Origin: Eledone cirrhosa | Lineage: Eukaryota | DNA length: 64,000 bases | Assembly (NCBI GenBank): GCA_964016885.1 | Contig: OZ024751.1 | Location: 49,972,001 to 50,036,000, forward strand | Reading direction: 5' to 3' | Shown here: piece after piece, positions 907-25,561 of the stretch | Numbering within the stretch: position 1 is the first letter of the stretch | Layout of the letters: every line of letters begins with the position of its first letter | Notes under the pieces: model-generated | What the model was told of the DNA's origin: nothing | Databases searched by the model: none | What the model saw: the letters and a program-made list of their open reading frames with translations, nothing else | Made by a program: the position numbers and the translations under genes

Positions 907-999
907 TTCTTCTTCTTCTTCTTCTTCTTCTTCTTCTTCTTCTTCTTCTTCTTCTTCTTCTTCTTCTTCTTCTTCTTCTTCTTCTTCTTCTTCTTCTTC
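907..999. repeat. (TTC)31 perfect trinucleotide microsatellite
   Basis: Uninterrupted TTC run. It produces the spurious poly-F and poly-K ORFs in the ORF track. Confidence 0.97.
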
Positions 1000-1027
1000 T
1001 CCCTATTATCGTAAACAATAAATGAAA

Positions 1028-1088
1028 TCATTATTTTGTAACTATTATTATTATCATTATTATCATTATCATTATTATTATTATTATT
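1028..1088. repeat. ATT/ATC microsatellite at the left array junction (longest form of the inter-copy linker; probable target site)
   Basis: TCATTATTTTGTAAC-TATTATTATTA-TCATTATTA-TCATTA-TC(ATT)6, followed by GAATGCC. All internal linkers are shorter arrangements of these same blocks. Confidence 0.85.
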
Positions 1089-1302
1089 GAATGCCATGGT
1101 TGACGGAGGCTCGGCTCTGTAAGGTATAGTAATTTTTAACCGTTAAAACAATTGTAAATTGTTTAAAACTTGAACCAAATTGTTGATAAAGACACCCTCC
1201 TCCTCGTGAGAGGGGTCTTTCTGTCCGTTATTTGGCCCTTCGGGGTTAAATAACCAGTTATTGGGGTTTTGTACCCAATATTCATTTTAAACAAAAAACA
1301 AC
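1089..1302 (+). promoter_or_regulatory. Structured 5' leader/UTR of the element (present in all 11 copies)
   Basis: Consecutive inverted repeats at 1091-1127, 1146-1164, 1188-1220, 1227-1254 (12-bp stem with C-TTCG-G loop) and 1259-1280. Function is inferred only. Confidence 0.55.
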
Positions 1303-3399
1303 ATGGCTACGAAAAAGAAATTTCATACGTCACTCCCACTCATTCCGTCTTCTTCTTCCTCAATCATCACTACAGCAGAGAGAAGATTGTCTCTCTCCCT
1401 CCCTTCTTTAAATGTGTCTCTCTCCCTCCCTTCTCTTTCGCAAGCGACGAAAGAAAAGAAAAGTCTCGTGCAAAGCGTGCAAGGTTTCTCCACGACGACG
1501 ACGACAGCGACGAAACAGGTGTGCGGGAAATACGAAAACCCAGTTCATTCGTCTGACGTCAGGAATAATAGCAGTAGCAGCCGTAATAACAACAGCAACA
1601 GTGACAATGAAAACAACAGTAGCAGCCGCAACAGCATCACCAGCAGCATAAACAACAACAGCATTAGCAGCAGCAACACCAACAACAACCACAGCAACAG
1701 CGGCGGAGGCAGTAGTCGTAGTACCTGCAGCAACAACAAAAGTACCAGCAGCTCTGACGACAACAACAACAGCAGAGAAAAACCAATCTCATTTGCAGGT
1801 ATTGCGAAAAACTTGGAAACAATCCTCATAACAAATGAGGAATTAGAGGAAGCGAAGAAGATGGTGACAAAGAACGGACACCGAGCAATCTGCAAGGCAG
1901 CGAAAAATTTTTTCGAAACCCAAGAGCACTGTACGGTCACGTACCGTACAGTAAGTACAAAATCCCGTAGGGTGGAAAGAGCCACAGAGGCCCAAATACA
2001 AAAAGCCTTGGGGTCTGTGTGGCAGAGGAAAACGCACATCACCCGAGGCAAAAAATACGCCACCGTAGACGTACTTTTTGCCACACCCCAGGAGGCAAAG
2101 GCCCAATCAGTAGTGACCCTAAGGAGCGAGGAAATGGTGTTGGTGCCCTCCTACTGCGGGCAAAAAATTGTGAGGGTCAAACTGACCCACGTCCCCCCCG
2201 AAATGACCCCTTCTTGGCTGGCCGCGTCTGTCCTCGTCGGAATCGAGGACAAAACAACTGTACTGCAAGTACAGAAAAAAGTAAGAGAAGATTGGGTCGG
2301 CTCCTCCATTGAGATGCTAATCCAAACCAACCAGGAGTGCATCGAAGCTATCCCGGATGTGATAGACTTCGATAACGGCACTCAACTGCCCATAAGTGTT
2401 GAGGGCAAACGCCCGAAATGCTTTCGCTGTGGATCGAAGACTCACCTCAGGGCCTTCTGCAACGAGAAGACCCTGAGAAAGGAGAAAACCCCCCTCCTCC
2501 CGAATCCGGTTCCACGGCTACCAGCAACAGGACAAGCGGCAACCAGGAACGATAGGTCCGTGGCACCCATACCCACTCCACGGAAATCAAAGACAGCAGC
2601 AGCAGTGGAAATATTAACAACAACAACAGCAATACCAAATGCAGCTGCAACAGAGACTCCAGTGCAAACATCACCAACAACAACAAGTGAAAGAGTGGAG
2701 CTGGTACCCCTCCCCGACCTTACAGAATCAGACATGGAGTGTGAGGTGGGAGAGGGATGGCAAAAGGTCTCAAGAAGGCACAAACGCAGAAGCAGCGCAT
2801 CGTCGCCTTTGAAAAGGGAGGAAAGAAATGAGAAAAGGGTAAAGTCTACTGCAAAGAGACCCACAGCAGCAACACCACCAACACCATCACCACCCACACC
2901 AGCACCACCATCACCACCGGCGACAACCCCACCGCCAACAACACCTTCAACACCACCACCACAAGCACCAACATCGCAAACACAACAACAAAACACACAC
3001 ACCCAGCAACAACGACAAGAAAATAGCAGAACCACACCCCACCCCCAGAAAAACAAATGCACGGCAATAAACACACACAACAAGAAACTAATGACTTACA
3101 TAATTGAACACACAGACATTTCACAACAGGACTACATAATACCAGCACCAATCAAAACGCCAACTAACATAAGACTGCTAAAAATAGCACAGAAACAATA
3201 CACAAACATTAAAACGAAATTCCCCAACGCAGTTGGTGATTTCAGGGACCTAGGAGGAACCATTAATCGAAGAGTATATTCAGACATTCTCTTAGAAGAG
3301 CCGACGACCAGCCGAAGGGACGATTCAACGGTCCCTTCACCAGACGATCAAGTGAAAAGGGATGTAAAAACCATCCCTCCTCTACCAAAAATACGGTAA
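1303..3399 (+). CDS. ORF1p, gag-like nucleic-acid-binding protein (698 aa)
   Basis: CCHC zinc knuckle CFRCGSKTHLRAFC (2419-2460). It is preceded by an RRM-like region (KYATVDVLF..., IVRVKLTHVPPEMTPSWL). Ser/Asn and Pro/Thr low-complexity tracts and a basic GWQKVSRRHKRR motif are present. Lies directly upstream of an APE-RT ORF. Confidence 0.9.
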   Translation: MATKKKFHTSLPLIPSSSSSIITTAERRLSLSLPSLNVSLSLPSLSQATKEKKSLVQSVQGFSTTTTTATKQVCGKYENPVHSSDVRNNSSSSRNNNSNSDNENNSSSRNSITSSINNNSISSSNTNNNHSNSGGGSSRSTCSNNKSTSSSDDNNNSREKPISFAGIAKNLETILITNEELEEAKKMVTKNGHRAICKAAKNFFETQEHCTVTYRTVSTKSRRVERATEAQIQKALGSVWQRKTHITRGKKYATVDVLFATPQEAKAQSVVTLRSEEMVLVPSYCGQKIVRVKLTHVPPEMTPSWLAASVLVGIEDKTTVLQVQKKVREDWVGSSIEMLIQTNQECIEAIPDVIDFDNGTQLPISVEGKRPKCFRCGSKTHLRAFCNEKTLRKEKTPLLPNPVPRLPATGQAATRNDRSVAPIPTPRKSKTAAAVEILTTTTAIPNAAATETPVQTSPTTTSERVELVPLPDLTESDMECEVGEGWQKVSRRHKRRSSASSPLKREERNEKRVKSTAKRPTAATPPTPSPPTPAPPSPPATTPPPTTPSTPPPQAPTSQTQQQNTHTQQQRQENSRTTPHPQKNKCTAINTHNKKLMTYIIEHTDISQQDYIIPAPIKTPTNIRLLKIAQKQYTNIKTKFPNAVGDFRDLGGTINRRVYSDILLEEPTTSRRDDSTVPSPDDQVKRDVKTIPPLPKIR

Positions 3400-3434
3400 G
3401 TGGTCTTTCCCATCTTTTCCACTCTATTTTAAAC

Positions 3435-6400
3435 ATGACCTCACTCAGAATAGGCAGCATAAATGCGCGTGGCTTGGGGTCGTCATGGAAGCAGGGTCAC
3501 CTGCTCAACGACCTCAGGTCACTAAACATAGATGTAGTGGCCATCAGCGAGACCAGAATCTCCGAAGCACGGGCCTTCGCACCGATCTTCGGCGGCTACG
3601 ATGTGTACGCATCTCCCAGCCGTCCTGGATCGGGTGGAGGAGTTGCTGTGCTTTTTCGGAGAGGTTTGGATCTCGCCATACGGGCCATCTTCCTGGACCC
3701 AGAGGGTAAGCTGGTGGTGCTGGACGTGACCAGCGGAGACGGGCAAGCTTTCAGGCTAGTGGCCGTCTATGCCCCGACAGGAGCAGGGCGGCCTGATTTC
3801 TTCCGGCGTCTGGAGACCTTTCTTGGAACGTCCCGCTCTTTAGTGTTAGTGGGCGACTGGAACGGGATCTTAGATGCACGCTGGGACTGTGTGGGATTAG
3901 CGGATAGGGGTGGAGGGTGCAAGAGCCTCACCAACCTGCTCAGGCGTTTTGAACTGTCTGACAGGTACCGATTGGATTTCCCGAATGTGCCAATGTGGAC
4001 TTGGACAAACCGCATAGGGTCATCCAGATCATATCTAGATAGAGTATTTTGTAGGGAAATAGATAGGTCTAGCATAGGCTGTCCACAATTCAAGATAGTC
4101 AGCTACACGGACCACAAATTCGTGATCTGTGTGCTTGACTTAGATAGGCTTCATAGACGAGGACCCGGCTACTGGAAGCTAAACGCGTCCTTACCAGCGC
4201 GCAAGGCCTACAGAGACCGGATTAGCGAACTAGTTAAGCGGGCGTTGACGGGGGCCATCGTCAACAACAAGTGGTGGTTTGCTCTGAAAAGAGCGATTAG
4301 AATAGAATCGATTAGGTTTAGTAAGGCTTTAGCAATAGAGAAAAATAGAGCAGAGGGAGAACTAGTTAGAAAATTAGACGAGGCGCTTAGCAAAGGCATT
4401 GCGACCGACGTGCTTGCGGCGAAATTGGCCCTTGACCAATTCTTCAATGCAAAGCACGAAGGCTGCGTTGTCAGAGCTAGGGTGCGTGCTCTCAGACACG
4501 AGGGGACGAAAGCCGTTCAATGGGCCCGAGTGGCGGAGGCGCGTCGTGGCAACAAAGCCACGATCCGGTCTTTGGTGGACCACGACGGGCGCATGCTACT
4601 CGATCCCGGGCAAATGTGTGAAGCTTTTCAGCGACACTTCGCTCAGCTGTTCGGGGGCAGCGGGGGGCCGGGTAGAGGGATGGACTTTAGTGTCTACCTC
4701 GACGGGCTGCCGCGGCTCTCGGCCACTGAGGCGAGGTGTTGCGAAAAGCCGATAACAGCCGCTGAAGTACGGGAGGCAATGACTGGCTGCACAAGGGGTA
4801 AATCGCCTGGTTTGGATGGTCTGCCCTATGAACTTTACGTACAGATGCCAGACTTGTTCGGAGGCCTCTTGGCGGACGTCTACTGCAACTGGCAACAGAA
4901 CGGGAGAATTCCCAGTTCTGTGAGCCGAGGAGCGGTGGCACTGCTGAGAAAGGATCCGAACAAGGGGGATAACATAGACAATTTCCGGCCCATAACTCTG
5001 CTAAACACAGAGTTTAAGATTTTGGCCAAGGTGCTAGCAAAGAGGTTGGCGCTTGTCGTTGGTGGTCTGGTGGGAGAGGCGCAGACATGCGCCATTCCCG
5101 ACAGATCCATCCACGACAACCTCCACCTCATGCGATACATCGTAGAGAGGGTAGCTAGGGAACCTGGCACGGGTGGGTCCTTGATCAATTTAGATCAGTC
5201 GAAAGCTTTCGATAGGGTCGACCATCGTTACCTAGCGGCAGTCCTGAGGGCGGCTGGCTTTGGGCCCGTCTTCAGAGGCTGGATCGCTGCCATGCACAGC
5301 GACATCTGCTCTGTGGTGAGAGTGAACGGTCACCTGTCGGAACCGTTCAACATCATGCGCTCGGTCCGCCAAGGATGTCCCCTCTCGTCCCTCTTGTACG
5401 TATTGACTCTCGAGCCATTACTGCACAAACTGGAGACGTTGAGGGGAGTCCCGCGCGAACTAGGATGCGGAAGATCCGTGTCAGCATATGCGGACGATGT
5501 CACCGTAGTGGTGTCGAACGCCAAACACATCGAGGCGATCGGCACTACACTAAGAGAATACGAAGCGGTGACAGGAGCAATGATCAACCAGGAAAAGTCA
5601 GTGGGCCTGCAGCTCGGCACCTGGAGAGGCAGGTCCATGCCGTCCAACAGCGTCGTCGGGCGCTGGACGGACGGACCGGTTAAATTGCTAGGGGTCTGGT
5701 TCGGTCCGGACCTCCAGACGGACAAAAACTGGGACGAGGTGACGAGCAGGGTGGCTTCTCTCACCCAGAAATGGGCGGAGAGGAAGCTATCCCTGAAAGG
5801 TCGAGCGGAGGTGGCTAACGCGTACATCGCGTCTGTCATCTGCTACCGCCTAACCGTCGTACCTTGTCCTAAGCCTCGCCTGACTGCGCTGGAGCGTTTG
5901 CTCTTTCGCTTTTTGTGGAAGGGACGTGCTCCGATGGTCAGGCGGTCCATCTGTTGTCAACACCCGCTACGTGGAGGGCTGGGCATGCCGTGGCTGATGA
6001 TGCGCAGGCACGCGCTCAGGCTACGACATCTCCACCTCTTCCTCGACGGTGATCAGGTGTGGTCGCCGTTTGCTAGACGCGTTTTTCCCCAGCTCGTTTC
6101 CTTGACGGAGCTGCAGTCCTGGGTCAAGCGAAGACCGAGAGGGAGCGCCTGGAGACTGGAATGTCTTCAGGCGCTCACAGCCCTCGACCAATCGGGCAAT
6201 GTGATCGGTGGAAACTCCACCTCGGCGTTCTATAGAGGATTAGTGGAGGGGAAGAGCGACGACGTACTTGGGGAAACTCTAGGCGTCGACGAAAATCAAC
6301 TAGCCAATCTCTTCGGAAGAACTTTCGGGCCAGGGCCTATGGACAACTTCCAGAAATCTCTGGCCTGGCAGTGCTACCGAGGAGCCTTGCCAGTTCGGGA

Positions 6401-6854
6401 TAAACTCTACAGGCATGGAGGTGCCGTCAGCCGGGCATGTCCGAGATGCGCGCAGGGCGACGAAACCGTCCTGCACGCACTCGTCCAGTGTCCGAAAATT
6501 GCTGACTTGTGGGTTTATGTCGAACACCTGCTGTCGCGTTTAGGACGGATCCAGCTATCATCTGAGTCCATCGTGAGGATTGCCCCGCCCTCCTCCTTTA
6601 GCCGGGAAGGGCAGGCAGTTTTTATCTGTCTGGTGGCCATGGCGAAAGAGATAGTATGGTGGACACGTTTGAAAGGGCTGAAGACGAGCACTTACCTCTT
6701 CGGTGATGCTCTGATTGACTTTTTCAAATTTCATTTGAAAAGGAAAATCAGAGTAGAGAGGGAAGTGCTCTCTTCCCAGCATTTTGTTGAAAGATGGGTG
6801 AGAGAAGCAAGAATGGCCCGAGTGAATGGGCCGACTCTGAGTATATATCTGTAA
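3435..6854 (+). CDS. ORF2p: APE endonuclease + reverse transcriptase + C-terminal CCHC (1139 aa)
   Basis: APE motifs SINARGL, ISETR, GGVAVL, VYAP, GDWN, YLDRVF, TDH. Tx1/L1-type GPGYWKLNASL. RT motifs KSPGLDGLPYE, FRPITLLN, LDQSKAFDRVDH, RQGCPLS, YADD. C-terminal CPRC...HALVQC. Confidence 0.97.
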   Translation: MTSLRIGSINARGLGSSWKQGHLLNDLRSLNIDVVAISETRISEARAFAPIFGGYDVYASPSRPGSGGGVAVLFRRGLDLAIRAIFLDPEGKLVVLDVTSGDGQAFRLVAVYAPTGAGRPDFFRRLETFLGTSRSLVLVGDWNGILDARWDCVGLADRGGGCKSLTNLLRRFELSDRYRLDFPNVPMWTWTNRIGSSRSYLDRVFCREIDRSSIGCPQFKIVSYTDHKFVICVLDLDRLHRRGPGYWKLNASLPARKAYRDRISELVKRALTGAIVNNKWWFALKRAIRIESIRFSKALAIEKNRAEGELVRKLDEALSKGIATDVLAAKLALDQFFNAKHEGCVVRARVRALRHEGTKAVQWARVAEARRGNKATIRSLVDHDGRMLLDPGQMCEAFQRHFAQLFGGSGGPGRGMDFSVYLDGLPRLSATEARCCEKPITAAEVREAMTGCTRGKSPGLDGLPYELYVQMPDLFGGLLADVYCNWQQNGRIPSSVSRGAVALLRKDPNKGDNIDNFRPITLLNTEFKILAKVLAKRLALVVGGLVGEAQTCAIPDRSIHDNLHLMRYIVERVAREPGTGGSLINLDQSKAFDRVDHRYLAAVLRAAGFGPVFRGWIAAMHSDICSVVRVNGHLSEPFNIMRSVRQGCPLSSLLYVLTLEPLLHKLETLRGVPRELGCGRSVSAYADDVTVVVSNAKHIEAIGTTLREYEAVTGAMINQEKSVGLQLGTWRGRSMPSNSVVGRWTDGPVKLLGVWFGPDLQTDKNWDEVTSRVASLTQKWAERKLSLKGRAEVANAYIASVICYRLTVVPCPKPRLTALERLLFRFLWKGRAPMVRRSICCQHPLRGGLGMPWLMMRRHALRLRHLHLFLDGDQVWSPFARRVFPQLVSLTELQSWVKRRPRGSAWRLECLQALTALDQSGNVIGGNSTSAFYRGLVEGKSDDVLGETLGVDENQLANLFGRTFGPGPMDNFQKSLAWQCYRGALPVRDKLYRHGGAVSRACPRCAQGDETVLHALVQCPKIADLWVYVEHLLSRLGRIQLSSESIVRIAPPSSFSREGQAVFICLVAMAKEIVWWTRLKGLKTSTYLFGDALIDFFKFHLKRKIRVEREVLSSQHFVERWVREARMARVNGPTLSIYL

Positions 6855-7114
6855 ACTAAAGGTGGAAAACTGGGAGAGGGCACTTGCCTTGGTGGTCAGG
6901 GTCATTGTGGCTTTTTACTGGGCTTTCTCCACAAATGTCCCTCCGAAGTCTCCCCCCTATTGGGGAATTTTTCATTGTTATTTTCATTGTTATTTTTGTT
7001 ACATCCTCTGTTTTTGTTTTTTTACACGCAGAAATGCCCATTTGTACCGTCCTGCATTGTCCTGCACTGTCCTTAATGTCTACTTTATGTAAACCCTTGT
7101 GGTTAATAAAGAAA
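6855..7114 (+). promoter_or_regulatory. 3' UTR with AATAAA polyadenylation-type signal (7105-7110) and no poly(A) tail (same in all complete copies)
   Basis: U-rich region with short direct repeats (TTTTCATTGTTA, TGTCCTGCA). Ends AATAAAGAAA and runs directly into the ATT/ATC linker. Confidence 0.7.
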
Positions 7115-7363
7115 TCATTATTATCATTATCATTATTATTATTATTATTGAATGCCATGGTTGACGGAGGCTCGGCTCTGTAAGGTATAGTAATTTTTAA
7201 CCGTTAAAACAATTGTAAATTGTTTAAAACTTGAACCAAATTGTTGATAAAGACACCCTCCTCCTCGTGAGAGGGGTCTTTCTGTCCGTTATTTGGCCCT
7301 TCGGGGTTAAATAACCAGTTATTGGGGTTTTGTACCCAATATTCATTTTAAACAAAAAACAAC

Positions 7364-9454
7364 ATGGCTACGAAAAAGAAATTTCATACGTCACTCCCAC
7401 TCATTCCGTCTTCTTCTTCCTCAATCATCACTACAGCAGAGAGAAGATTGTCTCTCTCCCTCCCTTCTTTAAATGTGTCTCTCTCCCTCCCTTCTCTTTC
7501 GCAAGCGACGAAAGAAAAGAAAAGTCTCGTGCAAAGCGTGCAAGGTTTCTCCACGACGACGACGACAGCGACGAAACAGGTGTGCGGGAAATACGAAAAC
7601 CCAGTTCATTCGTCTGACGTCAGGAATAATAGCAGTAGCAGCCGTAATAACAACAGCAACAGTGACAATGAAAACAACAGTAGCAGCCGCAACAGCATCA
7701 CCAGCAGCATAAACAACAACAGCATTAGCAGCAGCAACACCAACAACAACCACAGCAACAGCGGCGGAGGCAGTAGTCGTAGTACCTGCAGCAACAACAA
7801 AAGTACCAGCAGCTCTGACGACAACAACAACAGCAGAGAAAAACCAATCTCATTTGCAGGTATTGCGAAAAACTTGGAAACAATCCTCATAACAAATGAG
7901 GAATTAGAGGAAGCGAAGAAGATGGTGACAAAGAACGGACACCGAGCAATCTGCAAGGCAGCGAAAAATTTTTTCGAAACCCAAGAGCACTGTACGGTCA
8001 CGTACCGTACAGTAAGTACAAAATCCCGTAGGGTGGAAAGAGCCACAGAGGCCCAAATACAAAAAGCCTTGGGGTCTGTGTGGCAGAGGAAAACGCACAT
8101 CACCCGAGGCAAAAAATACGCCACCGTAGACGTACTTTTTGCCACACCCCAGGAGGCAAAGGCCCAATCAGTAGTGACCCTAAGGAGCGAGGAAATGGTG
8201 TTGGTGCCCTCCTACTGCGGGCAAAAAATTGTGAGGGTCAAACTGACCCACGTCCCCCCCGAAATGACCCCTTCTTGGCTGGCCGCGTCTGTCCTCGTCG
8301 GAATCGAGGACAAAACAACTGTACTGCAAGTACAGAAAAAAGTAAGAGAAGATTGGGTCGGCTCCTCCATTGAGATGCTAATCCAAACCAACCAGGAGTG
8401 CATCGAAGCTATCCCGGATGTGATAGACTTCGATAACGGCACTCAACTGCCCATAAGTGTTGAGGGCAAACGCCCGAAATGCTTTCGCTGTGGATCGAAG
8501 ACTCACCTCAGGGCCTTCTGCAACGAGAAGACCCTGAGAAAGGAGAAAACCCCCCTCCTCCCGAATCCGGTTCCACGGCTACCAGCAACAGGACAAGCGG
8601 CAACCAGGAACGATAGGTCCGTGGCACCCATACCCACTCCACGGAAATCAAAGACAGCAGCAGCAGTGGAAATATTAACAACAACAACAGCAATACCAAA
8701 TGCAGCTGCAACAGAGACTCCAGTGCAAACATCACCAACAACAACAAGTGAAAGAGTGGAGCTGGTACCCCTCCCCGACCTTACAGAATCAGACATGGAG
8801 TGTGAGGTGGGAGAGGGATGGCAAAAGGTCTCAAGAAGGCACAAACGCAGAAGCAGCGCATCGTCGCCTTTGAAAAGGGAGGAAAGAAATGAGAAAAGGG
8901 TAAAGTCTACTGCAAAGAGACCCACAGCAGCAACACCACCAACACCATCACCACCCACACCAGCACCACCATCACCACCGGCGACAACCCCACCGCCAAC
9001 AACACCTTCAACACCACAAGCACCAACATCGCAAACACAACAACAAAACACACACACCCAGCAACAACGACAAGAAAATAGCAGAACCACACCCCACCCC
9101 CAGAAAAACAAATGCACGGCAATAAACACACACAACAAGAAACTAATGACTTACATAATTGAACACACAGACATTTCACAACAGGACTACATAATACCAG
9201 CACCAATCAAAACGCCAACTAACATAAGACTGCTAAAAATAGCACAGAAACAATACACAAACATTAAAACGAAATTCCCCAACGCAGTTGGTGATTTCAG
9301 GGACCTAGGAGGAACCATTAATCGAAGAGTATATTCAGACATTCTCTTAGAAGAGCCGACGACCAGCCGAAGGGACGATTCAACGGTCCCTTCACCAGAC
9401 GATCAAGTGAAAAGGGATGTAAAAACCATCCCTCCTCTACCAAAAATACGGTAA
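7364..9454 (+). CDS. ORF1p (696 aa)
   Basis: Identical to copy 1 except TPSTPPPQ to TPSTPQ. Confidence 0.9.
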   Translation: MATKKKFHTSLPLIPSSSSSIITTAERRLSLSLPSLNVSLSLPSLSQATKEKKSLVQSVQGFSTTTTTATKQVCGKYENPVHSSDVRNNSSSSRNNNSNSDNENNSSSRNSITSSINNNSISSSNTNNNHSNSGGGSSRSTCSNNKSTSSSDDNNNSREKPISFAGIAKNLETILITNEELEEAKKMVTKNGHRAICKAAKNFFETQEHCTVTYRTVSTKSRRVERATEAQIQKALGSVWQRKTHITRGKKYATVDVLFATPQEAKAQSVVTLRSEEMVLVPSYCGQKIVRVKLTHVPPEMTPSWLAASVLVGIEDKTTVLQVQKKVREDWVGSSIEMLIQTNQECIEAIPDVIDFDNGTQLPISVEGKRPKCFRCGSKTHLRAFCNEKTLRKEKTPLLPNPVPRLPATGQAATRNDRSVAPIPTPRKSKTAAAVEILTTTTAIPNAAATETPVQTSPTTTSERVELVPLPDLTESDMECEVGEGWQKVSRRHKRRSSASSPLKREERNEKRVKSTAKRPTAATPPTPSPPTPAPPSPPATTPPPTTPSTPQAPTSQTQQQNTHTQQQRQENSRTTPHPQKNKCTAINTHNKKLMTYIIEHTDISQQDYIIPAPIKTPTNIRLLKIAQKQYTNIKTKFPNAVGDFRDLGGTINRRVYSDILLEEPTTSRRDDSTVPSPDDQVKRDVKTIPPLPKIR

Positions 9455-9489
9455 GTGGTCTTTCCCATCTTTTCCACTCTATTTTAAAC

Positions 9490-12400
9490 ATGACCTCACT
9501 CAGAATAGGCAGCATAAATGCGCGTGGCTTGGGGTCGTCATGGAAGCAGGGTCACCTGCTCAACGACCTCAGGTCACTAAACATAGATGTAGTGGCCATC
9601 AGCGAGACCAGAATCTCCGAAGCACGGGCCTTCGCACCGATCTTCGGCGGCTACGATGTGTACGCATCTCCCAGCCGTCCTGGATCCGGTGGAGGAGTTG
9701 CTGTGCTTTTTCGGAGAGGTTTGGATCTCGCCATACGGGCCATCTTCCTGGACCCAGAGGGTAAGCTGGTGGTGCTGGACGTGACCAGCGGAGACGGGCA
9801 AGCTTTCAGGCTAGTGGCCGTCTATGCCCCGACAGGAGCAGGGCGGCCTGATTTCTTCCGGCGTCTGGAGACCTTTCTTGGAACGTCGCGCTCTTTAGTG
9901 TTAGTGGGCGACTGGAACGGGATCTTAGATGCACGCTGGGACTGTGTGGGATTAGCGGATAGGGGTGGAGGGTGCAAGAGCCTCACCAACCTGCTCAGGC
10001 GTTTTGAACTGTCTGACAGGTACCGATTGGATTTCCCGAATGTGCCAATGTGGACTTGGACAAACCGCATAGGGTCATCCAGATCATATCTAGATAGAGT
10101 ATTTTGTAGGGAAATAGATAGGTCTAGCATAGGCTGTCCACAATTCAAGATAGTCAGCTACACGGACCACAAATTCGTGATCTGTGTGCTTGACTTAGAT
10201 AGGCTTCATAGACGAGGACCCGGCTACTGGAAGCTAAACGCGTCCTTACCAGCGCGCAAGGCCTACAGAGACCGGATTAGCGAACTAGTTAAGCGGGCGT
10301 TGACGGGGGCCATCGTCAACAACAAGTGGTGGTTTGCTCTGAAAAGAGCGATTAGAATAGAATCGATTAGGTTTAGTAAAGCTTTAGCAATAGAGAAAAA
10401 TAGAGCAGAGGGAGAACTAGTTAGAAAATTAGACGAGGCGCTTAGCAAAGGCATTGCGACCGACGTGCTTGCGGCGAAATTGGCCCTTGACCAATTCTTC
10501 AATGCAAAGCACGAAGGCTGCGTTGTCAGAGCTAGGGTGCGTGCTCTCAGACACGAGGGGACGAAAGCCGTTCAATGGGCCCGAGTGGCGGAGGCGCGTC
10601 GTGGCAACAAAGCCACGATCCGGTCTTTGGTGGACCACGACGGGCGCATGCTACTCGATCCCGGGCAAATGTGTGAAGCTTTTCAGCGACACTTCGCTCA
10701 GCTGTTCGGGGGCAGCGGGGGGCCGGGTAGAGGGATGGACTTTAGTGTCTACCTCGACGGACTGCCGCGGCTCTCGGCCACTGAGGCGAAGTGTTGCGAA
10801 AAGCCGATAACAGCCGCTGAAGTAAGGGAGGCAATGACTGGCTGCACAAGGGGTAAATCGCCTGGTTTGGATGGTCTGCCCTATGAACTTTACGTACAGA
10901 TGCCAGACTTGTTCGGAGGCCTCTTGGCGGACGTCTACTGCAACTGGCAACAGAACGGGAGAATTCCCAGTTCTGTGAGCCGAGGAGCGGTGGCACTGCT
11001 GAGAAAGGATCCGAACAAGGGGGATAACATAGACAATTTCCGGCCCATAACTCTGCTAAACACAGAGTTTAAGATTTTGGCCAAGGTGCTAGCAAAGAGG
11101 TTGGCGCTTGTCGTTGGTGGTCTGGTGGGAGAGGCGCAGACATGCGCCATTCCCGACAGATCCATCCACGACAACCTCCACCTCATGCGATACATCGTAG
11201 AGAGGGTAGCTAGGGAACCTGGCACGGGTGGGTCCTTGATCAATTTAGATCAGTCGAAAGCTTTCGATAGGGTCGACCATCGTTACCTAGCGGCAGTCCT
11301 GAGGGCGGCTGGCTTTGGGCCCGTCTTCAGAGGCTGGATCGCTGCCATGCACAGCGACATCTGCTCTGTGGTGAGAGTGAACGGTCACCTGTCGGAACCG
11401 TTCAACATCATGCGCTCGGTCCGCCAAGGATGTCCCCTCTCGTCCCTCTTGTACGTATTGACTCTCGAGCCATTACTGCACAAACTGGAGACGTTGAGGG
11501 GAGTCCCGCGCGAACTAGGATGCGGAAGATCCGTGTCAGCATATGCCGACGATGTCACCGTAGTGGTGTCGAACGCCAAACACATCGAGGCGATCGGCAC
11601 TACACTAAGAGAATACGAAGCGGTGACAGGAGCAATGATCAACCAGGAAAAGTCAGTGGGCCTGCAGCTCGGCACCTGGAGAGGCAGGTCCATGCCGTCC
11701 AACAGCGTCGTCGGGCGCTGGACGGACGGACCGGTTAAATTGCTAGGGGTCTGGTTCGGTCCGGACCTCCAGACGGACAAAAACTGGGACGAGGTGACGA
11801 GCAGGGTGGCTTCTCTCACCCAGAAATGGGCGGAGAGGAAGCTATCCCTGAAAGGTCGAGCGGAGGTGGCTAACGCGTACATCGCGTCTGTCATCTGCTA
11901 CCGCCTAACCGTCGTACCTTGTCCTAAGCCTCGCCTGACTGCGCTGGAGCGTTTGCTCTTTCGCTTTTTGTGGAAGGGACGTGCTCCGATGGTCAGGCGG
12001 TCCATCTGTTGTCAACACCCGCTACGTGGAGGGCTGGGCATGCCGTGGCTGATGATGCGCAGGCACGCGCTCAGGCTACGACATCTCCACCTCTTCCTCG
12101 ACGGTGATCAGGTGTGGTCGCCGTTTGCTAGACGCGTTTTTCCCCAGCTCGTTTCCTTGACGGAGCTGCAGTCCTGGGTCAAGCGAAGACCGAGAGGGAG
12201 CGCCTGGAGACTGGAATGTCTTCAGGCGCTCACAGCCCTCGACCAATCGGGCAATGTGATCGGTGGAAACTCCACCTCGGCGTTCTATAGAGGATTAGTG
12301 GAGGGGAAGAGCGACGACGTACTTGGGGAAACTCTAGGCGTCGACGAAAATCAACTAGCCAATCTCTTCGGAAGAACTTTCGGGCCGGGGCCTATGGACA

Positions 12401-12909
12401 ACTTCCAGAAATCTCTGGCCTGGCAGTGCTACCGAGGAGCCTTGCCAGTTCGGGATAAACTCTACAGGCATGGAGGTGCCGTCAGCCGGGCATGTCCGAG
12501 ATGCGCGCAGGGCGACGAAACCGTCCTGCACGCACTCGTCCAATGTCCGAAAATTGCTGACTTGTGGGTTTATGTCGAACACCTGCTGTCGCGTTTAGGA
12601 CGGATCCAGCTATCATCTGAGTCTATCGTGAGGATTGCCCCGCCCTCCTCCTTTAGCCGGGAAGGGCAGGCAGTTTTTATCTGTCTGGTGGCCATGGCGA
12701 AAGAGATAGTATGGTGGACACGTTTGAAAGGGCTGAAGACGAGCACTTACCTCTTCGGTGATGCTCTGATTGACTTTTTCAAATTTCATTTGAAAAGGAA
12801 AATCAGAGTAGAGAAGGAAGTGCTCTCTTCCCAGCATTTTCTTGAAAGATGGGTGAGAGAAGCAAGAATGGCCCGAGTGAATGGGCCGACTCTGAGTATA
12901 TATCTGTAA
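9490..12909 (+). CDS. ORF2p APE-RT (1139 aa)
   Basis: All APE, RT and CCHC motifs intact. Confidence 0.97.
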   Translation: MTSLRIGSINARGLGSSWKQGHLLNDLRSLNIDVVAISETRISEARAFAPIFGGYDVYASPSRPGSGGGVAVLFRRGLDLAIRAIFLDPEGKLVVLDVTSGDGQAFRLVAVYAPTGAGRPDFFRRLETFLGTSRSLVLVGDWNGILDARWDCVGLADRGGGCKSLTNLLRRFELSDRYRLDFPNVPMWTWTNRIGSSRSYLDRVFCREIDRSSIGCPQFKIVSYTDHKFVICVLDLDRLHRRGPGYWKLNASLPARKAYRDRISELVKRALTGAIVNNKWWFALKRAIRIESIRFSKALAIEKNRAEGELVRKLDEALSKGIATDVLAAKLALDQFFNAKHEGCVVRARVRALRHEGTKAVQWARVAEARRGNKATIRSLVDHDGRMLLDPGQMCEAFQRHFAQLFGGSGGPGRGMDFSVYLDGLPRLSATEAKCCEKPITAAEVREAMTGCTRGKSPGLDGLPYELYVQMPDLFGGLLADVYCNWQQNGRIPSSVSRGAVALLRKDPNKGDNIDNFRPITLLNTEFKILAKVLAKRLALVVGGLVGEAQTCAIPDRSIHDNLHLMRYIVERVAREPGTGGSLINLDQSKAFDRVDHRYLAAVLRAAGFGPVFRGWIAAMHSDICSVVRVNGHLSEPFNIMRSVRQGCPLSSLLYVLTLEPLLHKLETLRGVPRELGCGRSVSAYADDVTVVVSNAKHIEAIGTTLREYEAVTGAMINQEKSVGLQLGTWRGRSMPSNSVVGRWTDGPVKLLGVWFGPDLQTDKNWDEVTSRVASLTQKWAERKLSLKGRAEVANAYIASVICYRLTVVPCPKPRLTALERLLFRFLWKGRAPMVRRSICCQHPLRGGLGMPWLMMRRHALRLRHLHLFLDGDQVWSPFARRVFPQLVSLTELQSWVKRRPRGSAWRLECLQALTALDQSGNVIGGNSTSAFYRGLVEGKSDDVLGETLGVDENQLANLFGRTFGPGPMDNFQKSLAWQCYRGALPVRDKLYRHGGAVSRACPRCAQGDETVLHALVQCPKIADLWVYVEHLLSRLGRIQLSSESIVRIAPPSSFSREGQAVFICLVAMAKEIVWWTRLKGLKTSTYLFGDALIDFFKFHLKRKIRVEKEVLSSQHFLERWVREARMARVNGPTLSIYL

Positions 12910-13427
12910 ACTAAAGGTGGAAAACTGGGAGAGGGCACTTGCCTTGGTGGTCAGGGTCATTGTGGCTTTTTACTGGGCTTTCTCCACAAATGTCCCTCCG
13001 AAGTCTCCCCCCTATTGGGGAATTTTTCATTGTTATTTTCATTGTTATTTTTGTTACATCCTCTGTTTTTGTTTTTTACACGCAGAAATGCCCATTTGTA
13101 CCGTCCTGCATTGTCCTGCACTGTCCTTAATGTCTACTTTATGTAAACCCTTGTGGTTAATAAAGAAATCATTATTTTGTAACTATTATTATTATCATTA
13201 TTATTATTATTATTGAATGCCATGGTTGACGGAGGCTCGGCTCTGTAAGGTATAGTAATTTTTAACCGTTAAAACAATTGTAAATTGTTTAAAACTTGAA
13301 CCAAATTGTTGATAAAGACACCCTCCTCCTCGTGAGAGGGGTCTTTCTGTCCGTTATTTGGCCCTTCGGGGTTAAATAGCCAGTTATTGGGGTTTTGTAC
13401 CCAAAATTTCATTTTAAACAAAAAAAC

Positions 13428-15527
13428 ATGGCTACCAAAAAAAAAAAATTTCATACGTCACTCCCACTCATTCCGTCTTCTTCTTCCTCAATCATCACTA
13501 CAGGAGAGAGAAGATTGTCTCTCTCCCTCCCTTCTTTAAATGTGTCTCTCTCCCTACCTTCTCTTTCGCAAGCGACGAAAGAAAAGAAAAGTCTCGTGCA
13601 AAGCGTGCAAGGTTTCTCCACGACGACGACGACAGCGACGAAACAGGTGTGCGGGAAATACGAAAACCCAGTTCATTCGTCTGACGTCAGGAATAATAGC
13701 AGTAGCAGCCGTAATAACAACAGCAACAGTGACAATGAAAACAACAGTAGCAGCCGCAACAGCATCACCAGCAGCATAAACAACAACAGCATTAGCAGCA
13801 GCAACACCAACAACAACCACAGCAACAGCGGCGGAGGCAGTAGTCGTAGTACCTGCAGCAACAACAAAAGTACCAGCAGCTCTGACGACAACAACAACAG
13901 CAGAGAAAAACCAATCTCATTTGCAGGTATTGCGAAAAACCTGGAAACAATCCTCATAACAAATGAGGAATTAGAGGAAGCGAAGAAGATGGTGACAAAG
14001 AACGGACACCGAGCAATCTGCAAGGCAGCGAAAAATTTTTTCGAAACCCAAGAGCACTGTACGGTCACGTACCGTACAGTAAGTACAAAATCCCGTAGGG
14101 TGGAAAGAGCCACAGAGGCCCAAATACAAAAAGCCTTGGGGTCTGTGTGGCAGAGGAAAACGCACATCACCCGAGGCAAAAAATACGCCACCGTAGACGT
14201 ACTTTTTGCCACACCCCAGGAGGCAAAGGCCCAATCAGTAGTGACCCTAAGGAGCGAGGAAATGGTGTTGGTGCCCTCCTACTGCGGGCAAAAAATTGTG
14301 AGGGTCAAACTGACCCACGTCCCCCCCGGAATGACCCCTTCTTGGCTGGCCGCGTCTGTCCTCGTCGGAATCGAGGACAAAACAACTGTACTGCAAGTAC
14401 AGAAAAAAGTAAGAGAAGATTGGGTCGGCTCCTCCATTGAGATGCTAATCCAAACCAACCAGGAGTGCATCGAAGCTATCCCGGATGTGATAGACTTCGA
14501 TAACGGCACTCAACTGCCCATAAGTGTTGAGGGCAAACGCCCGAAATGCTTTCGCTGTGGATCGAAGACTCACCTCAGGGCCTTCTGCAACGAGAAGACC
14601 CTGAGAAAGGAGAAAACCCCCCTCCTCCCGAATCCGGTTCCACGGCTACCAGCAACAGGACAAGCGGCAACCAGGAACGATAGGTCCGTGGCACCCATAC
14701 CCACTCCACGGAAATCAAAGACAGCAGCAGCAGTGGAAATATTAACAACAACAACAGCAATACCAAATGCAGCTGCAACAGAGACTCCAGTGCAAACATC
14801 ACCAACAACAACAAGTGAAAGAGTGGAGCTGGTACCCCTCCCCGACCTTACAGAATCAGACATGGAGTGTGAGGTGGGAGAGGGATGGCAAAAGGTCTCA
14901 AGAAGGCACAAACGCAGAAGCAGCGCATCGTCGCCTTTGAAAAGGGAGGAAAGAAATGAGAAAAGGGTAAAGTCTACTGCAAAGAGACCCACAGCAGCAA
15001 CACCACCAACACCATCACCACCCACACCAGCACCACCATCACCACCGGCGACAACCCCACCGCCAACAACACCTTCAACACCACCACCACAAGCACCAAC
15101 ATCGCAAACACAACAACAAAACACACACACCCAGCAACAACGACAAGAAAATAGCAGAACCACACCCCACCCCCAGAAAAACAAATGCACGGCAATAAAC
15201 ACACACAACAAGAAACTAATGACTTACATAATTGAACACACAGACATTTCACAACAGGACTACATAATACCAGCACCAATCAAAACGCCAACTAACATAA
15301 GACTGCTAAAAATAGCACAGAAACAATACACAAACATTAAAACGAAATTCCCCAACGCAGTTGGTGATTTCAGGGACCTAGGAGGAACCATTAATCGAAG
15401 AGTATATTCAGACATTCTCTTAGAAGAGCCGACGACCAGCCGAAGGGACGATTCAACGGTCCCTTCACCAGACGATCAAGTGAAAAGGGATGTAAAAACC
15501 ATCCCTCCTCTACCAAAAATACGGTAA
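13428..15527 (+). CDS. ORF1p (699 aa from the homologous ATG)
   Basis: MATKKKKFH start at 13428. The ORF track's 13395 start is an upstream TTG. Confidence 0.88.
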   Translation: MATKKKKFHTSLPLIPSSSSSIITTGERRLSLSLPSLNVSLSLPSLSQATKEKKSLVQSVQGFSTTTTTATKQVCGKYENPVHSSDVRNNSSSSRNNNSNSDNENNSSSRNSITSSINNNSISSSNTNNNHSNSGGGSSRSTCSNNKSTSSSDDNNNSREKPISFAGIAKNLETILITNEELEEAKKMVTKNGHRAICKAAKNFFETQEHCTVTYRTVSTKSRRVERATEAQIQKALGSVWQRKTHITRGKKYATVDVLFATPQEAKAQSVVTLRSEEMVLVPSYCGQKIVRVKLTHVPPGMTPSWLAASVLVGIEDKTTVLQVQKKVREDWVGSSIEMLIQTNQECIEAIPDVIDFDNGTQLPISVEGKRPKCFRCGSKTHLRAFCNEKTLRKEKTPLLPNPVPRLPATGQAATRNDRSVAPIPTPRKSKTAAAVEILTTTTAIPNAAATETPVQTSPTTTSERVELVPLPDLTESDMECEVGEGWQKVSRRHKRRSSASSPLKREERNEKRVKSTAKRPTAATPPTPSPPTPAPPSPPATTPPPTTPSTPPPQAPTSQTQQQNTHTQQQRQENSRTTPHPQKNKCTAINTHNKKLMTYIIEHTDISQQDYIIPAPIKTPTNIRLLKIAQKQYTNIKTKFPNAVGDFRDLGGTINRRVYSDILLEEPTTSRRDDSTVPSPDDQVKRDVKTIPPLPKIR

Positions 15528-15562
15528 GTGGTCTTTCCCATCTTTTCCACTCTATTTTAAAC

Positions 15563-18500
15563 ATGACCTCACTCAGAATAGGCAGCATAAATGCGCGTGG
15601 CTTGGGGTCGTCATGGAAGCAGGGTCACCTGCTCAACGACCTCAGGTCACTAAACATAGATGTAGTGGCCATCAGCGAGACCAGAATCTCCGAAGCACGG
15701 GCCTTCGCACCGATCTTCGGCGGCTACGATGTGTACGCATCTCCCAGCCGTCCTGGATCGGGGGCAGGAGTTGCTGTGCTTTTTCGGAGAGGTTTGGATC
15801 TCGCCATACGGGCCATCTTCCTGGACCCAGAGGGTAAGCTGGTGGTGCTGGACGTGACCAGCGGAGACGGGCAAGCTTTCAGGCTAGTGGCCGTCTATGC
15901 CCCGACAGGAGCAGGGCGGCCTGATTTCTTCCGGCGTCTGGAGACCTTTCTTGGAACGTCGCGCTCTTTAGTGTTAGTGGGCGACTGGAACGGGATCTTA
16001 GATGCACGCTAGGACTGTGTGGGATTAGCGGATAGGGGTGGAGGGTGCAAGAGCCTCACCAACCTGCTCAGGCGTTTTGAACTGTCTGACAGGTACCGAT
16101 TGGATTTCCCGAATGTGCCAATGTGGACTTGGACAAACCGCATAGGGTCATCCAGATCATATCTAGATAGAGTATTTTGTAGGGAAATAGATAGGTCTAG
16201 CATAGGCTGTCCACAATTCAAGATAGTCAGCTACACGGACCACAAATTCGTGATCTGTGTGCTTGACTTAGATAGGCTTCATAGACGAGGACCCGGCTAC
16301 TGGAAGCTAAACGCGTCCTTACCAGCGCGCAAGGCCTACAGAGACCGGATTAGCGAACTAGTTAAGCGGGCGTTGACGGGGGCCATCGTCAACAACAAGT
16401 GGTGGTTTGCTCTGAAAAGAGCGATTAGAATAGAATCGATTAGGTTTAGTAAGGCTTTAGCAATAGAGAAAAATAGAGCAGAGGGAGAACTAGTTAGAAA
16501 ATTAGACGAGGCGCTTAGCAAAGGCATTGCGACCGACGTGCTTGCGGCGAAATTGGCCCTTGACCAATTCTTCAATGCAAAGCACGAAGGCTGCGTTGTC
16601 AGAGCTAGGGTGCGTGCTCTCAGACACGAGGGGACGAAAGCCGTTCAATGGGCCCGAGTGGCGGAGGCGCGTCGTGGCAACAAAGCCACGATCCGGTCTT
16701 TGGTGGACCACGACGGGCGCATGCTACTCGATCCCGGGCAAATGTGTGAAGCTTTTCAGCGACACTTCGCTCAGCTGTTCGGGGGCAGCGGGGGGCCGGG
16801 TAGAGGGATGGACTTTAGTGTCTACCTCGACGGACTGCCGCGGCTCTCGGCCACTGAGGCGAAGTGTTGCGAAAAGCCGATAACAGCCGCTGAAGTAAGG
16901 GAGGCAATGACTGGCTGCACAAGGGGTAAATCGCCTGGTTTGGATGGTCTGCCCTATGAACTTTACGTACAGATGCCAGACTTGTTCGGAGGCCTCTTGG
17001 CGGACGTCTACTGCAACTGGCAACAGAACGGGAGAATTCCCAGTTCTGTGAGCCGAGGAGCGGTGGCACTGCTGAGAAAGGATCCGAACAAGGGGGATAA
17101 CATAGACAATTTCCGGCCCATAACTCTGCTAAACACAGAGTTTAAGATTTTGGCCAAGGTGCTAGCAAAGAGGTTGGCGCTTGTCGTTGGTGGTCTGGTG
17201 GGAGAGGCGCAGACATGCGCCATTCCCGACAGATCCATCCACGACAACCTCCACCTCATGCGATACATCGTAGAGAGGGTAGCTAGGGAACCTGGCACGG
17301 GTGGGTCCTTGATCAATTTAGATCAGTCGAAAGCTTTCGATAGGGTCGACCATCGTTACCTAGCGGCAGTCCTGAGGGCGGCTGGCTTTGGGCCCGTCTT
17401 CAGAGGCTGGATCGCTGCCATGCACAGCGACATCTGCTCTGTGGTGAGAGTGAACGGTCACCTGTCGGAACCGTTCAACATCATGCGCTCGGTCCGCCAA
17501 GGATGTCCCCTCTCGTCCCTCTTGTACGTATTGACTCTCGAGCCATTACTGCACAAACTGGAGACGTTGAGGGGAGTCCCGCGCGAACTAGGATGCGGAA
17601 GATCCGTGTCAGCATATGCGGACGATGTCACCGTAGTGGTGTCGAACGCCAAACACATCGAGGCGATCGGCACTACACTAAGAGAATACGAAGCGGTGAC
17701 AGGAGCAATGATCAACCAGGAAAAGTCAGTGGGCCTGCAGCTCGGCACCTGGAGAGGCAGGTCCATGCCGTCCAACAGCGTCGTCGGGCGCTGGACGGAC
17801 GGACCGGTTAAATTGCTAGGGGTCTGGTTCGGTCCGGACCTCCAGACGGACAAAAACTGGGACGAGGTGACGAGCAGGGTGGCTTCTCTCACCCAGAAAT
17901 GGGCGGAGAGGAAGCTATCCCTGAAAGGTCGAGCGGAGGTGGCTAACGCGTACATCGCGTCTGTCATCTGCTACCGCCTAACCGTCGTACCTTGTCCTAA
18001 GCCTCGCCTGACTGCGCTGGAGCGTTTGCTCTTTCGCTTTTTGTGGAAGGGACGTGCTCCGATGGTCAGGCGGTCCATCTGTTGTCAACACCCGCTACGT
18101 GGAGGGCTGGGCATGCCGTGGCTGATGATGCGCAGGCACGCGCTCAGGCTACGACATCTCCACCTCTTCCTCGACGGTGATCAGGTGTGGTCGCCGTTTG
18201 CTAGACGCGTTTTTCCCCAGCTCGTTTCCTTGACGGAGCTGCAGTCCTGGGTCAAGCGAAGACCGAGAGGGAGCGCCTGGAGACTGGAATGTCTTCAGGC
18301 GCTCACAGCCCTCGACCAATCGGGCAATGTGATCGGTGGAAACTCCACCTCGGCGTTCTATAGAGGATTAGTGGAGGGGAAGAGCGACGACGTACTTGGG
18401 GAAACTCTAGGCGTCGACGAAAATCAACTAGCCAATCTCTTCGGAAGAACCTTCGGGCCAGGGCCTATGGACAACTTCCAGAAATCTCTGGCCTGGCAGT

Positions 18501-18982
18501 GCTACCGAGGAGCCTTGCCAGTTCGGGATAAACTCTACAGGCATGGAGGTGCCGTCAGCCGGGCATGTCCGAGATGCGCGCAGGGCGACGAAACCGTCCT
18601 GCACGCACTCGTCCAGTGTCCGAAAATTGCTGACTTGTGGGTTTATGTCGAACACCTGCTGTCGCGTTTAGGACGGATCCAGCTATCATCTGAGTCTATC
18701 GTGAGGATTGCCCCGCCCTCCTCCTTTAGCCGGGAAGGGCAGGCAGTTTTTATCTGTCTGGTGGCCATGGCGAAAGAGATAGTATGGTGGACACGTTTGA
18801 AAGGGCTGAAGACGAGCACTTACCTCTTCGGTGATGCTCTGATTGACTTTTTCAAATTTCATTTGAAAAGGAAAATCAGAGTAGAGAAGGAAGTGCTCTC
18901 TTCCCAGCATTTTGTTGAAAGATGGGTGAGAGAAGCAAGAATGGCCCGAGTGAATGGGCCGACTCTGAGTATATATCTGTAA
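15563..18982 (+). pseudogene. ORF2 interrupted by W150-stop inside the endonuclease domain
   Basis: GCACGCTAGGAC here versus GCACGCTGGGAC in intact copies. The reading frame is otherwise open. Confidence 0.9.
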
Positions 18983-19492
18983 ACTAAAGGTGGAAAACTG
19001 GGAGAGGGCACTTGCCTTGGTGGTCAGGGTCATTGTGGCTTTTTACTGGGCTTTCTCCACAAATGTTCCTCCGAAGTCTCCCCCCTATTGGGGAATTTTT
19101 CATTGTTATTTTCATTGTTATTTTTGTTACATCCTCTATTTTTGTTTTTTTTACACGCAGAAATGCCCATTTGTACCGTCCTGCATTGTCCTGCACTGTC
19201 CTTAATGTCTACTTTATGTAAACCCTTGTGGTTAATAAAGAAATCATTATTATCATTATCATTATTATTATTATTATTGAATGCCATGGTTGACGGAGGC
19301 TCGGCTCTGTAAGGTATAGTAATTTTTAACCGTTAAAACAATTGTAAATTGTTTAAAACTTGAACCAAATTGTTGATAAAGACACCCTCCTCCTCGTGAG
19401 AGGGGTCTTTCTGTCCGTTATTTGGCCCTTCGGGGTTAAATAACCAGTTATTGGGGTTTTGTACCCAATATTCATTTTAAACAAAAAACAAC

Positions 19493-21589: not shown

Positions 21590-21624
21590 GTGGTCTTTCC
21601 CATCTTTTCCACTCTATTTTAAAC

Positions 21625-25044: not shown

Positions 25045-25561
25045 ATTAAAGGTGGAAAACTGGGAGAGGGCACTTGCCTTGGTGGTCAGGGTCATTGTGG
25101 CTTTTTACTGGGCTTTCTCCACAAATGTCCCTCCGAAGTCTCCCCCCTATTGGGGAATTTTTCATTGTTATTTTCATTGTTATTTTTGTTACATCCTCTG
25201 TTTTTGTTTTTTACACGCAGAAATGCCCATTTGTACCGTCCTGCATTGTCCTGCACTGTCCTTAATGTCTACTTTATGTAAACCCTTGTGGTTAATAAAG
25301 AAATCATTATTATCATTATTATCATTATCATTATTATTATTATTATTGAATGCCATGGTTGACGGAGGCTCGGCTCTGTAAGGTATAGTAATTTTTAACC
25401 GTTAAAACAATTGTAAATTGTTTAAAACTTGAACCAAATTGTTGATAAAGACACCCTCCTCCTCGTGAGAGGGGTCTTTCTGTCCGTTATTTGGCCCTTC
25501 GGGGTTAAATAACCAGTTATTGGGGTTTTGTACCCAATATTCATTTTAAACAAAAAACAAC

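Follow-up and report, generated by a model that had tools for sequence, protein, structure and literature searches.

A LINE of Eledone cirrhosa forms a long head-to-tail array that has probably grown by reverse transcription primed in the ATT tract that lies upstream of a resident, the cDNA then being completed on that resident copy such that both the intervening flank and the resident's head are duplicated. The evidence is drawn from the window, by which we mean the whole 64,000-nt stretch of DNA that was analysed, from the neighbouring genome into which the array continues, and from a sample of 128 full-length copies at 63 loci, out of about 1,700 heads, in which arrays were deliberately sought. 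Forty single loci were fetched, of which 13 lacked a full-length tail and yielded no unit, and one aberrant unit (B555) was dropped before neighbouring pairs were counted.

A tandem array of full-length LINE copies

A 6.03-kb LINE is repeated head to tail in the window, which contains 10.4 copies of it on the + strand, the strand also of the ORFs, linkers and flank tracts of the array located below. Together with the neighbouring genome the array comprises 13 copies, all of full length, and ends at window-equivalent position 79,919; unit 11 (61747..64000) is cut by the window end, and units 12 and 13 lie outside. Each copy has an ORF1 of 698 aa and an ORF2 of 1,139 aa; both are open in 11 of the 13 copies, and units 3 and 9 have a common stop at codon 150 of ORF2.

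Unit 1 (1089..7116; 6,028 nt) is a full-length LINE running from GAATGCC to AATAAAGAAATC. Its ORF1 (1303..3399; 698 aa) contains one CX2CX4HX4C knuckle, recognised by eye, and gave no Pfam family above cut-off, while ORF2 (3435..6854; 1,139 aa) encodes an APE endonuclease (residues 22-210), a reverse transcriptase and a zf-RVT domain (PF03372, PF00078 and PF13966, all above the Pfam cut-off). The best solved relative of ORF2 is human L1 ORF2p (E 3e-52, residues 5-854), with R2 behind it (E 1e-21). The N-terminal APE, the reverse transcriptase and the C-terminal cysteine-rich domain are those of an APE-type non-LTR element of the L1 group, and the separate ORF1, the absence of LTRs and the fixed 3' end combined with 5' truncation are likewise those of a non-LTR element. 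Genome-wide, exact patterns returned 7,591 3' ends against 1,687 heads, a ratio of 4.5 to 1 (patterns were used for the 3' ends, as a DNA search with the 3' end matched nothing), and in 16 of 30 sampled 3' ends the alignment stopped within 1.5 kb, indicating 5' truncation. The family is an L1/Tx1-like LINE, with a tentative Tx1 label set from anatomy: a CCHC knuckle in ORF1 together with zf-RVT is what we take to be the Tx1 arrangement. Searches for homologues of the LINE protein gave 33 hits and 10 clusters, among which there was no named Tx1 protein and no useful clade name.

The unique left flank contains an (AT)n tract and an 18-nt direct repeat (123-242 and 718-753), followed by a (TTC)31 microsatellite (907..1000) that lies upstream of the site and is not the insertion tract here. 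The right flank of the array differs from the left one, reading TC(ATT)11 ATC (ATT)4 ACT..., and a second, isolated AATAAAGAAATC occurs about 100 nt into it (window-equivalent 80,015-80,030), as a remnant or by chance.

The family inserts into (ATT)n tracts

Of the 1,687 heads in the genome, 1,641 stand directly after (ATT)3 and in exact register with it; of the 7,591 3' ends, 6,327 continue into NC(ATT)2. In a sample of 30 heads, (ATT)n preceded every one. This collection of junctions, which an earlier note on this DNA had proposed, thus revealed ATT at 97% of heads and 83% of 3' ends, far above the 20% of flanks of one type that PMC4494074 gives as the threshold for a target preference. The family is therefore (ATT)n-specific, and the self-regenerating target that the earlier note envisaged is borne out, since each new junction leaves a fresh ATT tract. 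Among the 16 early-stopping 3' ends, the sequence directly upstream was ATT in 5, TTC in 2 and ACT in 1, and several of the others are old copies whose true junction is obscured. ATT is thus a target and not merely the head of the element, with a specificity that is not absolute.

Two other candidate targets were rejected. ATC, which had been thought part of the target, is only an interruption private to the locus of this array, and TTC tracts often lie just upstream of heads but never at the junction (30 sampled). In 382 cases a head begins 20-50 nt after one of the family's 3' ends, and the 100 linkers listed among these head-to-tail junctions are mostly pure (ATT)n. The exact register at the 5' end suggests either that the RNA carries ATT at its 5' end or that the second cut is phased.

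The ATT tracts have other occupants and neighbours. Three off-target 3' ends of the family retain NCATTA and then run into GCC, into ACT repeats or into satellite, which suggests that only a few paired bases may be needed for priming. Recurrent sequences follow the ATT tail in eight 3' flanks and in others (GTTCTTTGAGTCTCAG..., CCTTGAATCTCAG..., GGCGACCTACG..., ACAGTTGC...); they probably mark where other repeats end, the ATT tracts being derived from the tails or targets of those repeats. In six stretches, sister families whose 3' ends read GCCCTTGTGGCCAATAAA(T)GAAATC occupy the same (ATT)n tracts and stack with the array LINE. An abundant SINE-like repeat of ~220-250 nt, ending GCCTTGTG...AGAAACA or ...AGAAATC and then (ATT)n like the 3' end of the LINE, is found in the same tracts, in another array of the family (A114) and in five further flanks. 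In A114 one SINE-like copy lies within the array, with the array's own GTT(ATT)5 linker after it, and for that reason it may share the insertion route of the LINE.

Linkers are copies of the left flank

Unit 1 is preceded by a 59-nt target tract (1030..1088), (ATT)2 TTGTAACT (ATT)3 ATC (ATT)2 ATC ATT ATC (ATT)6, which is, to judge from its sequence, the template for all linkers of the array. The linker coordinates and lengths given in the earlier note were exact (35, 46, 35, 44, 44, 38, 35, 46, 35 and 44 nt, measured from after AATAAAGAAA, against 61 nt at the flank), and two further linkers beyond the window measure 46 and 44 nt when counted in the same way, with TC. Every head indeed follows TC(ATT)6, both the 11 that the window shows and the 13 of the complete array. 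The leading TC, which the earlier note counted with the linker, nevertheless belongs to the element: copies elsewhere end in TC, AC or GC, depending on subfamily, before their own tracts, so that TC constitutes the last two bases of the element and the copied flank measures 33, 36, 42 or 44 nt.

Counted in this manner, a linker matches a suffix of the left flank exactly in 9 of 12 cases. These nine comprise, within the window, four of 33 nt (7117..7149, 19246-19278, 43505-43537 and 55643-55675), three of 42 nt (25306..25347, 31370-31411 and 61705-61746) and one of 36 nt (37441..37476), in which the TC of the element is joined directly to ATC, so that the RNA added no ATT tail there. The remaining three are the 46-mers, 44 nt without TC (13171..13214, 49568-49611 and one beyond the window), which contain TTGTAACT and equal the flank minus 15 nt; they are not suffixes. 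The 3' join is variable, as had been noted, and changes in triplet steps. The proposal that it begins at alternative TCATTATT registers holds for the 35- and 46-mers (6 of 10 in the window) but fails for the 38- and 44-mers, which start after TT. Just upstream of the tract lies AATAAATGAAATC (1017..1029; 13 nt), which resembles the 3' end of a sister family and is one base off the LINE's own end. It is possibly a tiny truncated remnant, and it may also be the homology at which the 46-nt linkers begin; the same end precedes the heads at three other junctions and closes an upstream copy in the C411 stretch.

The linker sequence is confined to this locus. The 28-nt block TTTTGTAAC occurs 4 times in the 3.0-Gb genome and each time in the array, and all 10 genome matches to the junction ATC-ATT-ATC-(ATT)6-GAATGCC fall in the array as well, so that the linker pattern is not due to chance. 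The linkers are thus copied target flank, as the earlier note had held, and neither a head nor a tail of the element. An origin as a head or tail encoded on the RNA is extremely improbable: a few ATT units may well sit at the ends of the RNA, to go by the exact register found at 97% of heads, but the interrupted sequence is absent elsewhere in the genome, every array has its own linker, and dispersed copies bear their own local tracts and not the linker of this array.

Flank duplication requires a downstream copy

To ask when the flank is copied, we used interruptions in the tract upstream of the head, which were present in 41 of the 128 sampled copies. Where a further head came next, the interruption was repeated at the 3' end in 25 of 25 copies (6 loci); where none did, it was repeated in 0 of 16 copies (15 loci). 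The 25 copies are not independent, as this array supplies 12 and a single other array 8, and there is one exception by eye that the rule did not score, unit 2 of C278, in which a head follows and the upstream interruption is not repeated. Eight extra junctions chosen for interrupted linkers gave 2 that repeat the left flank, 2 that do not and 4 without a detected head of the left copy. The comparison of 0/16 with 25/25 implies that a single insertion makes no long duplication, and that the repeat needs a copy downstream.

The same design of linker is found at five other loci, one of them a 10-head array with its own GTTGGTGTC linker. In the 10-head array B441, on C1, the linkers are nested suffixes of that array's own flank with an invariant GCT(ATT)6 end, and at another locus the repeated block is 232 nt long and has a truncated copy inside it. 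Duplicated blocks range overall from 24 to 232 nt.

These observations bear on the mechanism put forward in the earlier note, which explains the linkers as target-site duplications of unusual length, made by full-length insertions independent of one another: each new copy would enter 5' of a resident, the second strand would be cut at the resident's junction, and the linker would be a true long duplication. Drosophila R1 tandems arise in this way, with a fixed 14-bp duplication, according to PMC2718515. In the present family the long duplication is missing from all 16 terminal copies and the blocks vary up to 232 nt in length, and we consider this mechanism improbable, also for reasons that emerge from the units themselves (below).

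Three structures stand somewhat apart. In B441, the head at the far left extends for 2.1 kb and then meets the linker and the next head, no element tail lying between them; the flank and 5' part were here duplicated alone, possibly in an aborted event. At A55, three full-length copies with no 5' sharing are separated by an 887-nt spacer, the repeats of which are 99.7% identical, a locus that was outside the neighbour-pair counts (300-nt gap limit) and that fits no simple version of our model, as the 5' part of the middle copy is common to no neighbour. At B119, heads of the GAATGCT and GAATGCC subfamilies alternate with a 12-kb period, which suggests duplication of a dimer.

Neighbouring copies share 5' parts and differ in 3' parts

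We then compared neighbouring copies along their length. Only 1 of 60 neighbour pairs was fully identical (B234). In the 59 non-identical pairs, an identical 5' prefix of at least 1 kb was present in 20 (8 loci), with 3.0 expected, and an identical 3' suffix of at least 1 kb in 4, with 1.1 expected, both expectations being taken from unrelated pairs matched for divergence. Local 5' sequence was common to 28 of the 60 pairs, and the other 32 are compatible with independence. Of 48 locus-private alleles shared between neighbours, 34 lay in the 5' half, versus 256 of 592 private alleles of single copies (most divergent locus excluded).

The array itself displays the same asymmetry. Unit 2 (7150..13170) equals unit 1 through element position 2543 and then accumulates 12 differences. 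Unit 4 (19279..25305) has a 5' half of the array type and a block of five 3' alleles unseen in the other units, each of which is present at 11-29 other loci, and unit 5 (25348..31369) joins an array-type 5' part to a middle 2 kb that is identical to a copy at another locus. A marker allele, A at window 2201 (element position 1113), is carried by units 1, 2, 4, 5, 6 (31412..37440), 7 (37477..43504) and 10 (55676..61704); it has 8 matches in the genome, 7 of them in the array and the eighth in an otherwise unrelated copy. In the three read runs that cover this position, out of four runs in which repeats were skipped, only G was seen. At 40 of the 51 variable sites in the array, every allele is present at other loci, in blocks. 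That seven units carry a 5' allele found once elsewhere indicates that the duplication often reaches kilobases into the element, and together with the outside alleles at the 40 sites it points to a local source for the 5' parts and to sources at other loci for the 3' parts.

Foreign 3' tracts extend up to 3-4.5 kb and include the last dinucleotide; neighbours at A63, B16 and C278 differ even in that terminal dinucleotide. The C278 pair, the clearest case, has 0 differences over 3,037 nt and then 64, and over the last 1.5 kb its left copy differs from a copy elsewhere by 1 and its right copy by 32. In pairs that share 5' sequence, the fresher 3' half usually belongs to the left copy. At loci with 5' sharing, scored on the rightmost sharing pair of each, private 3' alleles were fewer in the left copy in 9, in the right copy in 1 and tied in 3 (p 0.02), compared with 7, 7 and 4 at loci without such sharing; across all 28 sharing pairs the left/right split was 14 to 5 with 9 ties, A94 being reversed in direction. 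This polarity tracks the element on both contig strands. A haplotype-continuity test for the hybrid member was clear only at A94 and informative in 1 of 20 pairs. In the 32 pairs without 5' sharing the right copy was fresher in 18, and many of these junctions look like ordinary insertion into the tail of an older copy.

Units 3, 8 and 9 and the C22 pair have linkers derived from the flank with little or no provable 5' sharing. Unit 3 (13215..19245; stop at 16010-16012) has another 5' haplotype, which unit 8 (43538..49567) also carries from position 191. Units 3 and 9 (49612..55642; stop at 52407-52409) differ at one site, a substitution; two private alleles, one of them the stop, are common to both, and each unit is flanked by the same pair of linkers, from which we infer that they are DNA-level duplicates that arose by unequal exchange. 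The three 46-mers are not adjacent, and evidently not all of them can be derived from additions of single units.

The foreign 5' haplotype of units 3, 8 and 9 is what independent full-length insertion next to a resident would give, and so is A109, whose unit 1 is a near-complete import: beyond its first 1.5 kb, it differs from a copy at another locus by only 0-2 positions in each 1.5 kb. However, A109 unit 1 and its neighbour have two private alleles in common, at positions 137 and 202, and independent insertion cannot supply seven units with the one local allele at position 1113, whose duplication with kilobases of the element, alongside the DNA-level origin of units 3 and 9, runs against it.

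A single ancestral linker altered by replication slippage within a locally amplified array, or an artefact of assembly or polishing, is a very improbable source of these patterns. Pure ATT runs do vary in length (13 versus 8 at C278), the 46-mer requires one 15-nt loss, and the reads of the four runs span no junction. Slippage alone leaves unexplained the nine exact suffixes with an invariant (ATT)6, and the nested suffixes with invariant GCT(ATT)6 at B441 tell against it too, as do the alleles from many other loci that the units bear and a polarity that follows the element and not the contig strand.

A model for array growth

The arrays could grow as follows. The APE domain would nick the (AAT)n strand, in any one of several triplet registers, and RNA from a distant copy, ending in GAAATC with few or no ATT units, would prime at the nick. 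The cDNA, complete or partial, would then meet an identical resident dozens to a few hundred bases downstream and would anneal to it after unwinding, or invade it, on the same or the sister chromatid. Synthesis or fill-in would copy the 5' part of the resident together with its 5' junction, and then the flank as far back as the nick, giving in order the flank, a chimeric new copy, TC plus a suffix of the flank, and the resident. The 5' junction would thereby be inherited and not re-cut, the 3' register would be new at each event, and truncated cDNAs would emerge at full length. With several units present, unequal exchange would duplicate blocks, as in units 3 and 9, which carry 46-nt linkers.

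The structures have the form that an insertion resolved on homology would leave, namely a 5' part from the resident, a 3' part from the donor and a duplication of the DNA between nick and resident. Homology-resolved target-primed reverse transcription seems to us the simplest single event that yields the copied flank, the shared 5' parts and the foreign 3' parts, and we think it likely to be correct; a point against it is that the 46-mers require an extra slip of 15 nt. The counts behind it come from neighbour pairs that are not independent and from a sample enriched for arrays and, in part, for interrupted linkers.

The order of events might also be reversed, with DNA-level duplication coming first. 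An identical duplicate would be generated by unequal exchange, or when the ATT tail recombines with the ATT tract on the left; ectopic gene conversion, or cDNA that primes in the linker, would later overwrite the 3' parts. We regard this two-step route as rather unlikely. It would account for the linker structure and the inherited 5' junction as well as our model does, and DNA-level duplication does occur, as in units 3 and 9, B234, the four pairs that share a 3' kilobase and a 2.2-kb tail-less duplicate of head plus linker at B441. Donors of 3' sequence are also the more plentiful (7,591 versus 1,687), and ectopic conversion would likewise favour 3' parts given that 3' ends outnumber heads 4.5 to 1. 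Yet identical neighbours make up only 1 of 60 pairs, unequal exchange predicts equal 3' and 5' sharing where 4 and 20 pairs were seen, conversion should strike left and right copies equally where 9 and 1 loci were seen, and the foreign tracts are 3-4.5 kb long and run through the last dinucleotide.

More tentatively, pairing of cDNA with a resident may be the routine mode of 5' attachment of this family in the germline. Truncated cDNAs would by this means give rise to hybrids, to a family-wide shuffling of alleles and to arrays of tens of kilobases, and many full-length copies might be hybrids.

Relation to known systems

Microsatellites are known targets of Tx1 elements, with Kibi in (TC)n, Koshi in (TTC)n and crocodilian Tx1 in (TTCC)n or (TTTC)n (PMC4494074 and PMC3812793), and tandem insertions of a Tx1-mobilised SINE, SINEU-3, around a duplication are described in PMC4494074. 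The array LINE resembles these families as an APE-type LINE with two ORFs residing in one simple repeat, and differs from Kibi and Koshi in its target, which was (ATT)n, not (TC)n or (TTC)n, at 30 of 30 sampled heads. Long flank duplication with 5' sharing, as found here, is not described for microsatellite Tx1 families in the portions of these two papers that we could consult. In the literature searched we found no (ATT)n-specific Tx1 family, although the target may be recorded already, in Repbase or in lists of Tx1 targets.

The target repeat class is also that of Dong, which inserts into TAA microsatellites (PMC3812793) and is grouped with R4 under the label Dong-R4 (PMC13282606), R4 being a clade with a restriction-like endonuclease (PMC4640811). 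That endonuclease would lie after the reverse transcriptase, in an element without APE; ORF2 of the array LINE has an N-terminal APE and is closest to L1. Active L1-Tx1 families have been reported in an octopus, with no targets given in the available part of that paper (PMC13282606).

In R1 and other LINEs, tandems form by double insertion, with the usual target duplication as spacer, and double insertion is described as a seed of satellites (PMC2718515; 10.1101/158386). The array LINE resembles R1 in its head-to-tail copies, spacers made of target, additions 5' of a resident and later unequal exchange. By the same sources, the spacer there is a fixed duplication (14 or 33 nt) and dimers often include 5'-truncated copies, whereas in the array LINE the spacer varies and is missing at single insertions, all 13 copies are of full length, and copies are probably hybrids of resident and donor. 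Spacers of 24-232 nt repeat the interruption here, yet none of the 16 terminal copies does, so that the spacer is not the usual target-site duplication, and the 28 of 60 pairs with common local 5' sequence are not independent neighbours.

Chimeric L1 insertions resolved on homologous DNA were reportedly observed by Gilbert et al. in 2002 and 2005. That nascent L1 cDNA can pair with homologous DNA close by is known as an occasional event (10.1101/2024.08.27.596794), described for cultured cells and tumours, whereas in the array LINE such pairing appears to recur in the germline and to build arrays. The recurrence is what sequence-specific targeting would bring about, by setting nicks right beside a resident. 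The growth of arrays in this family would then appear to be a variant of a known cDNA-homology pathway, with arrays built of hybrids as the part that appears new; in our literature search no LINE arrays made of resident-donor hybrids were found. As for the earlier note, its target and the flank origin of the linkers are right, and its mechanism of long duplications is mostly wrong.

Implications

Attachment of the 5' end is the least understood step of LINE retrotransposition, and this family supplies many natural records of it with readable markers, 382 junctions being scorable genome-wide. If our model is correct, homology to a neighbouring copy would rescue truncated cDNAs, lineages of LINEs would recombine without meiotic crossing-over, and satellite-like arrays would be seeded by a route besides plain double insertion. 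The predicted (ATT)n-specific APE domain would extend the set of sequence-specific targets by one. Subfamily trees and age estimates of LINEs in such genomes could, on the same condition, rest on hybrids.
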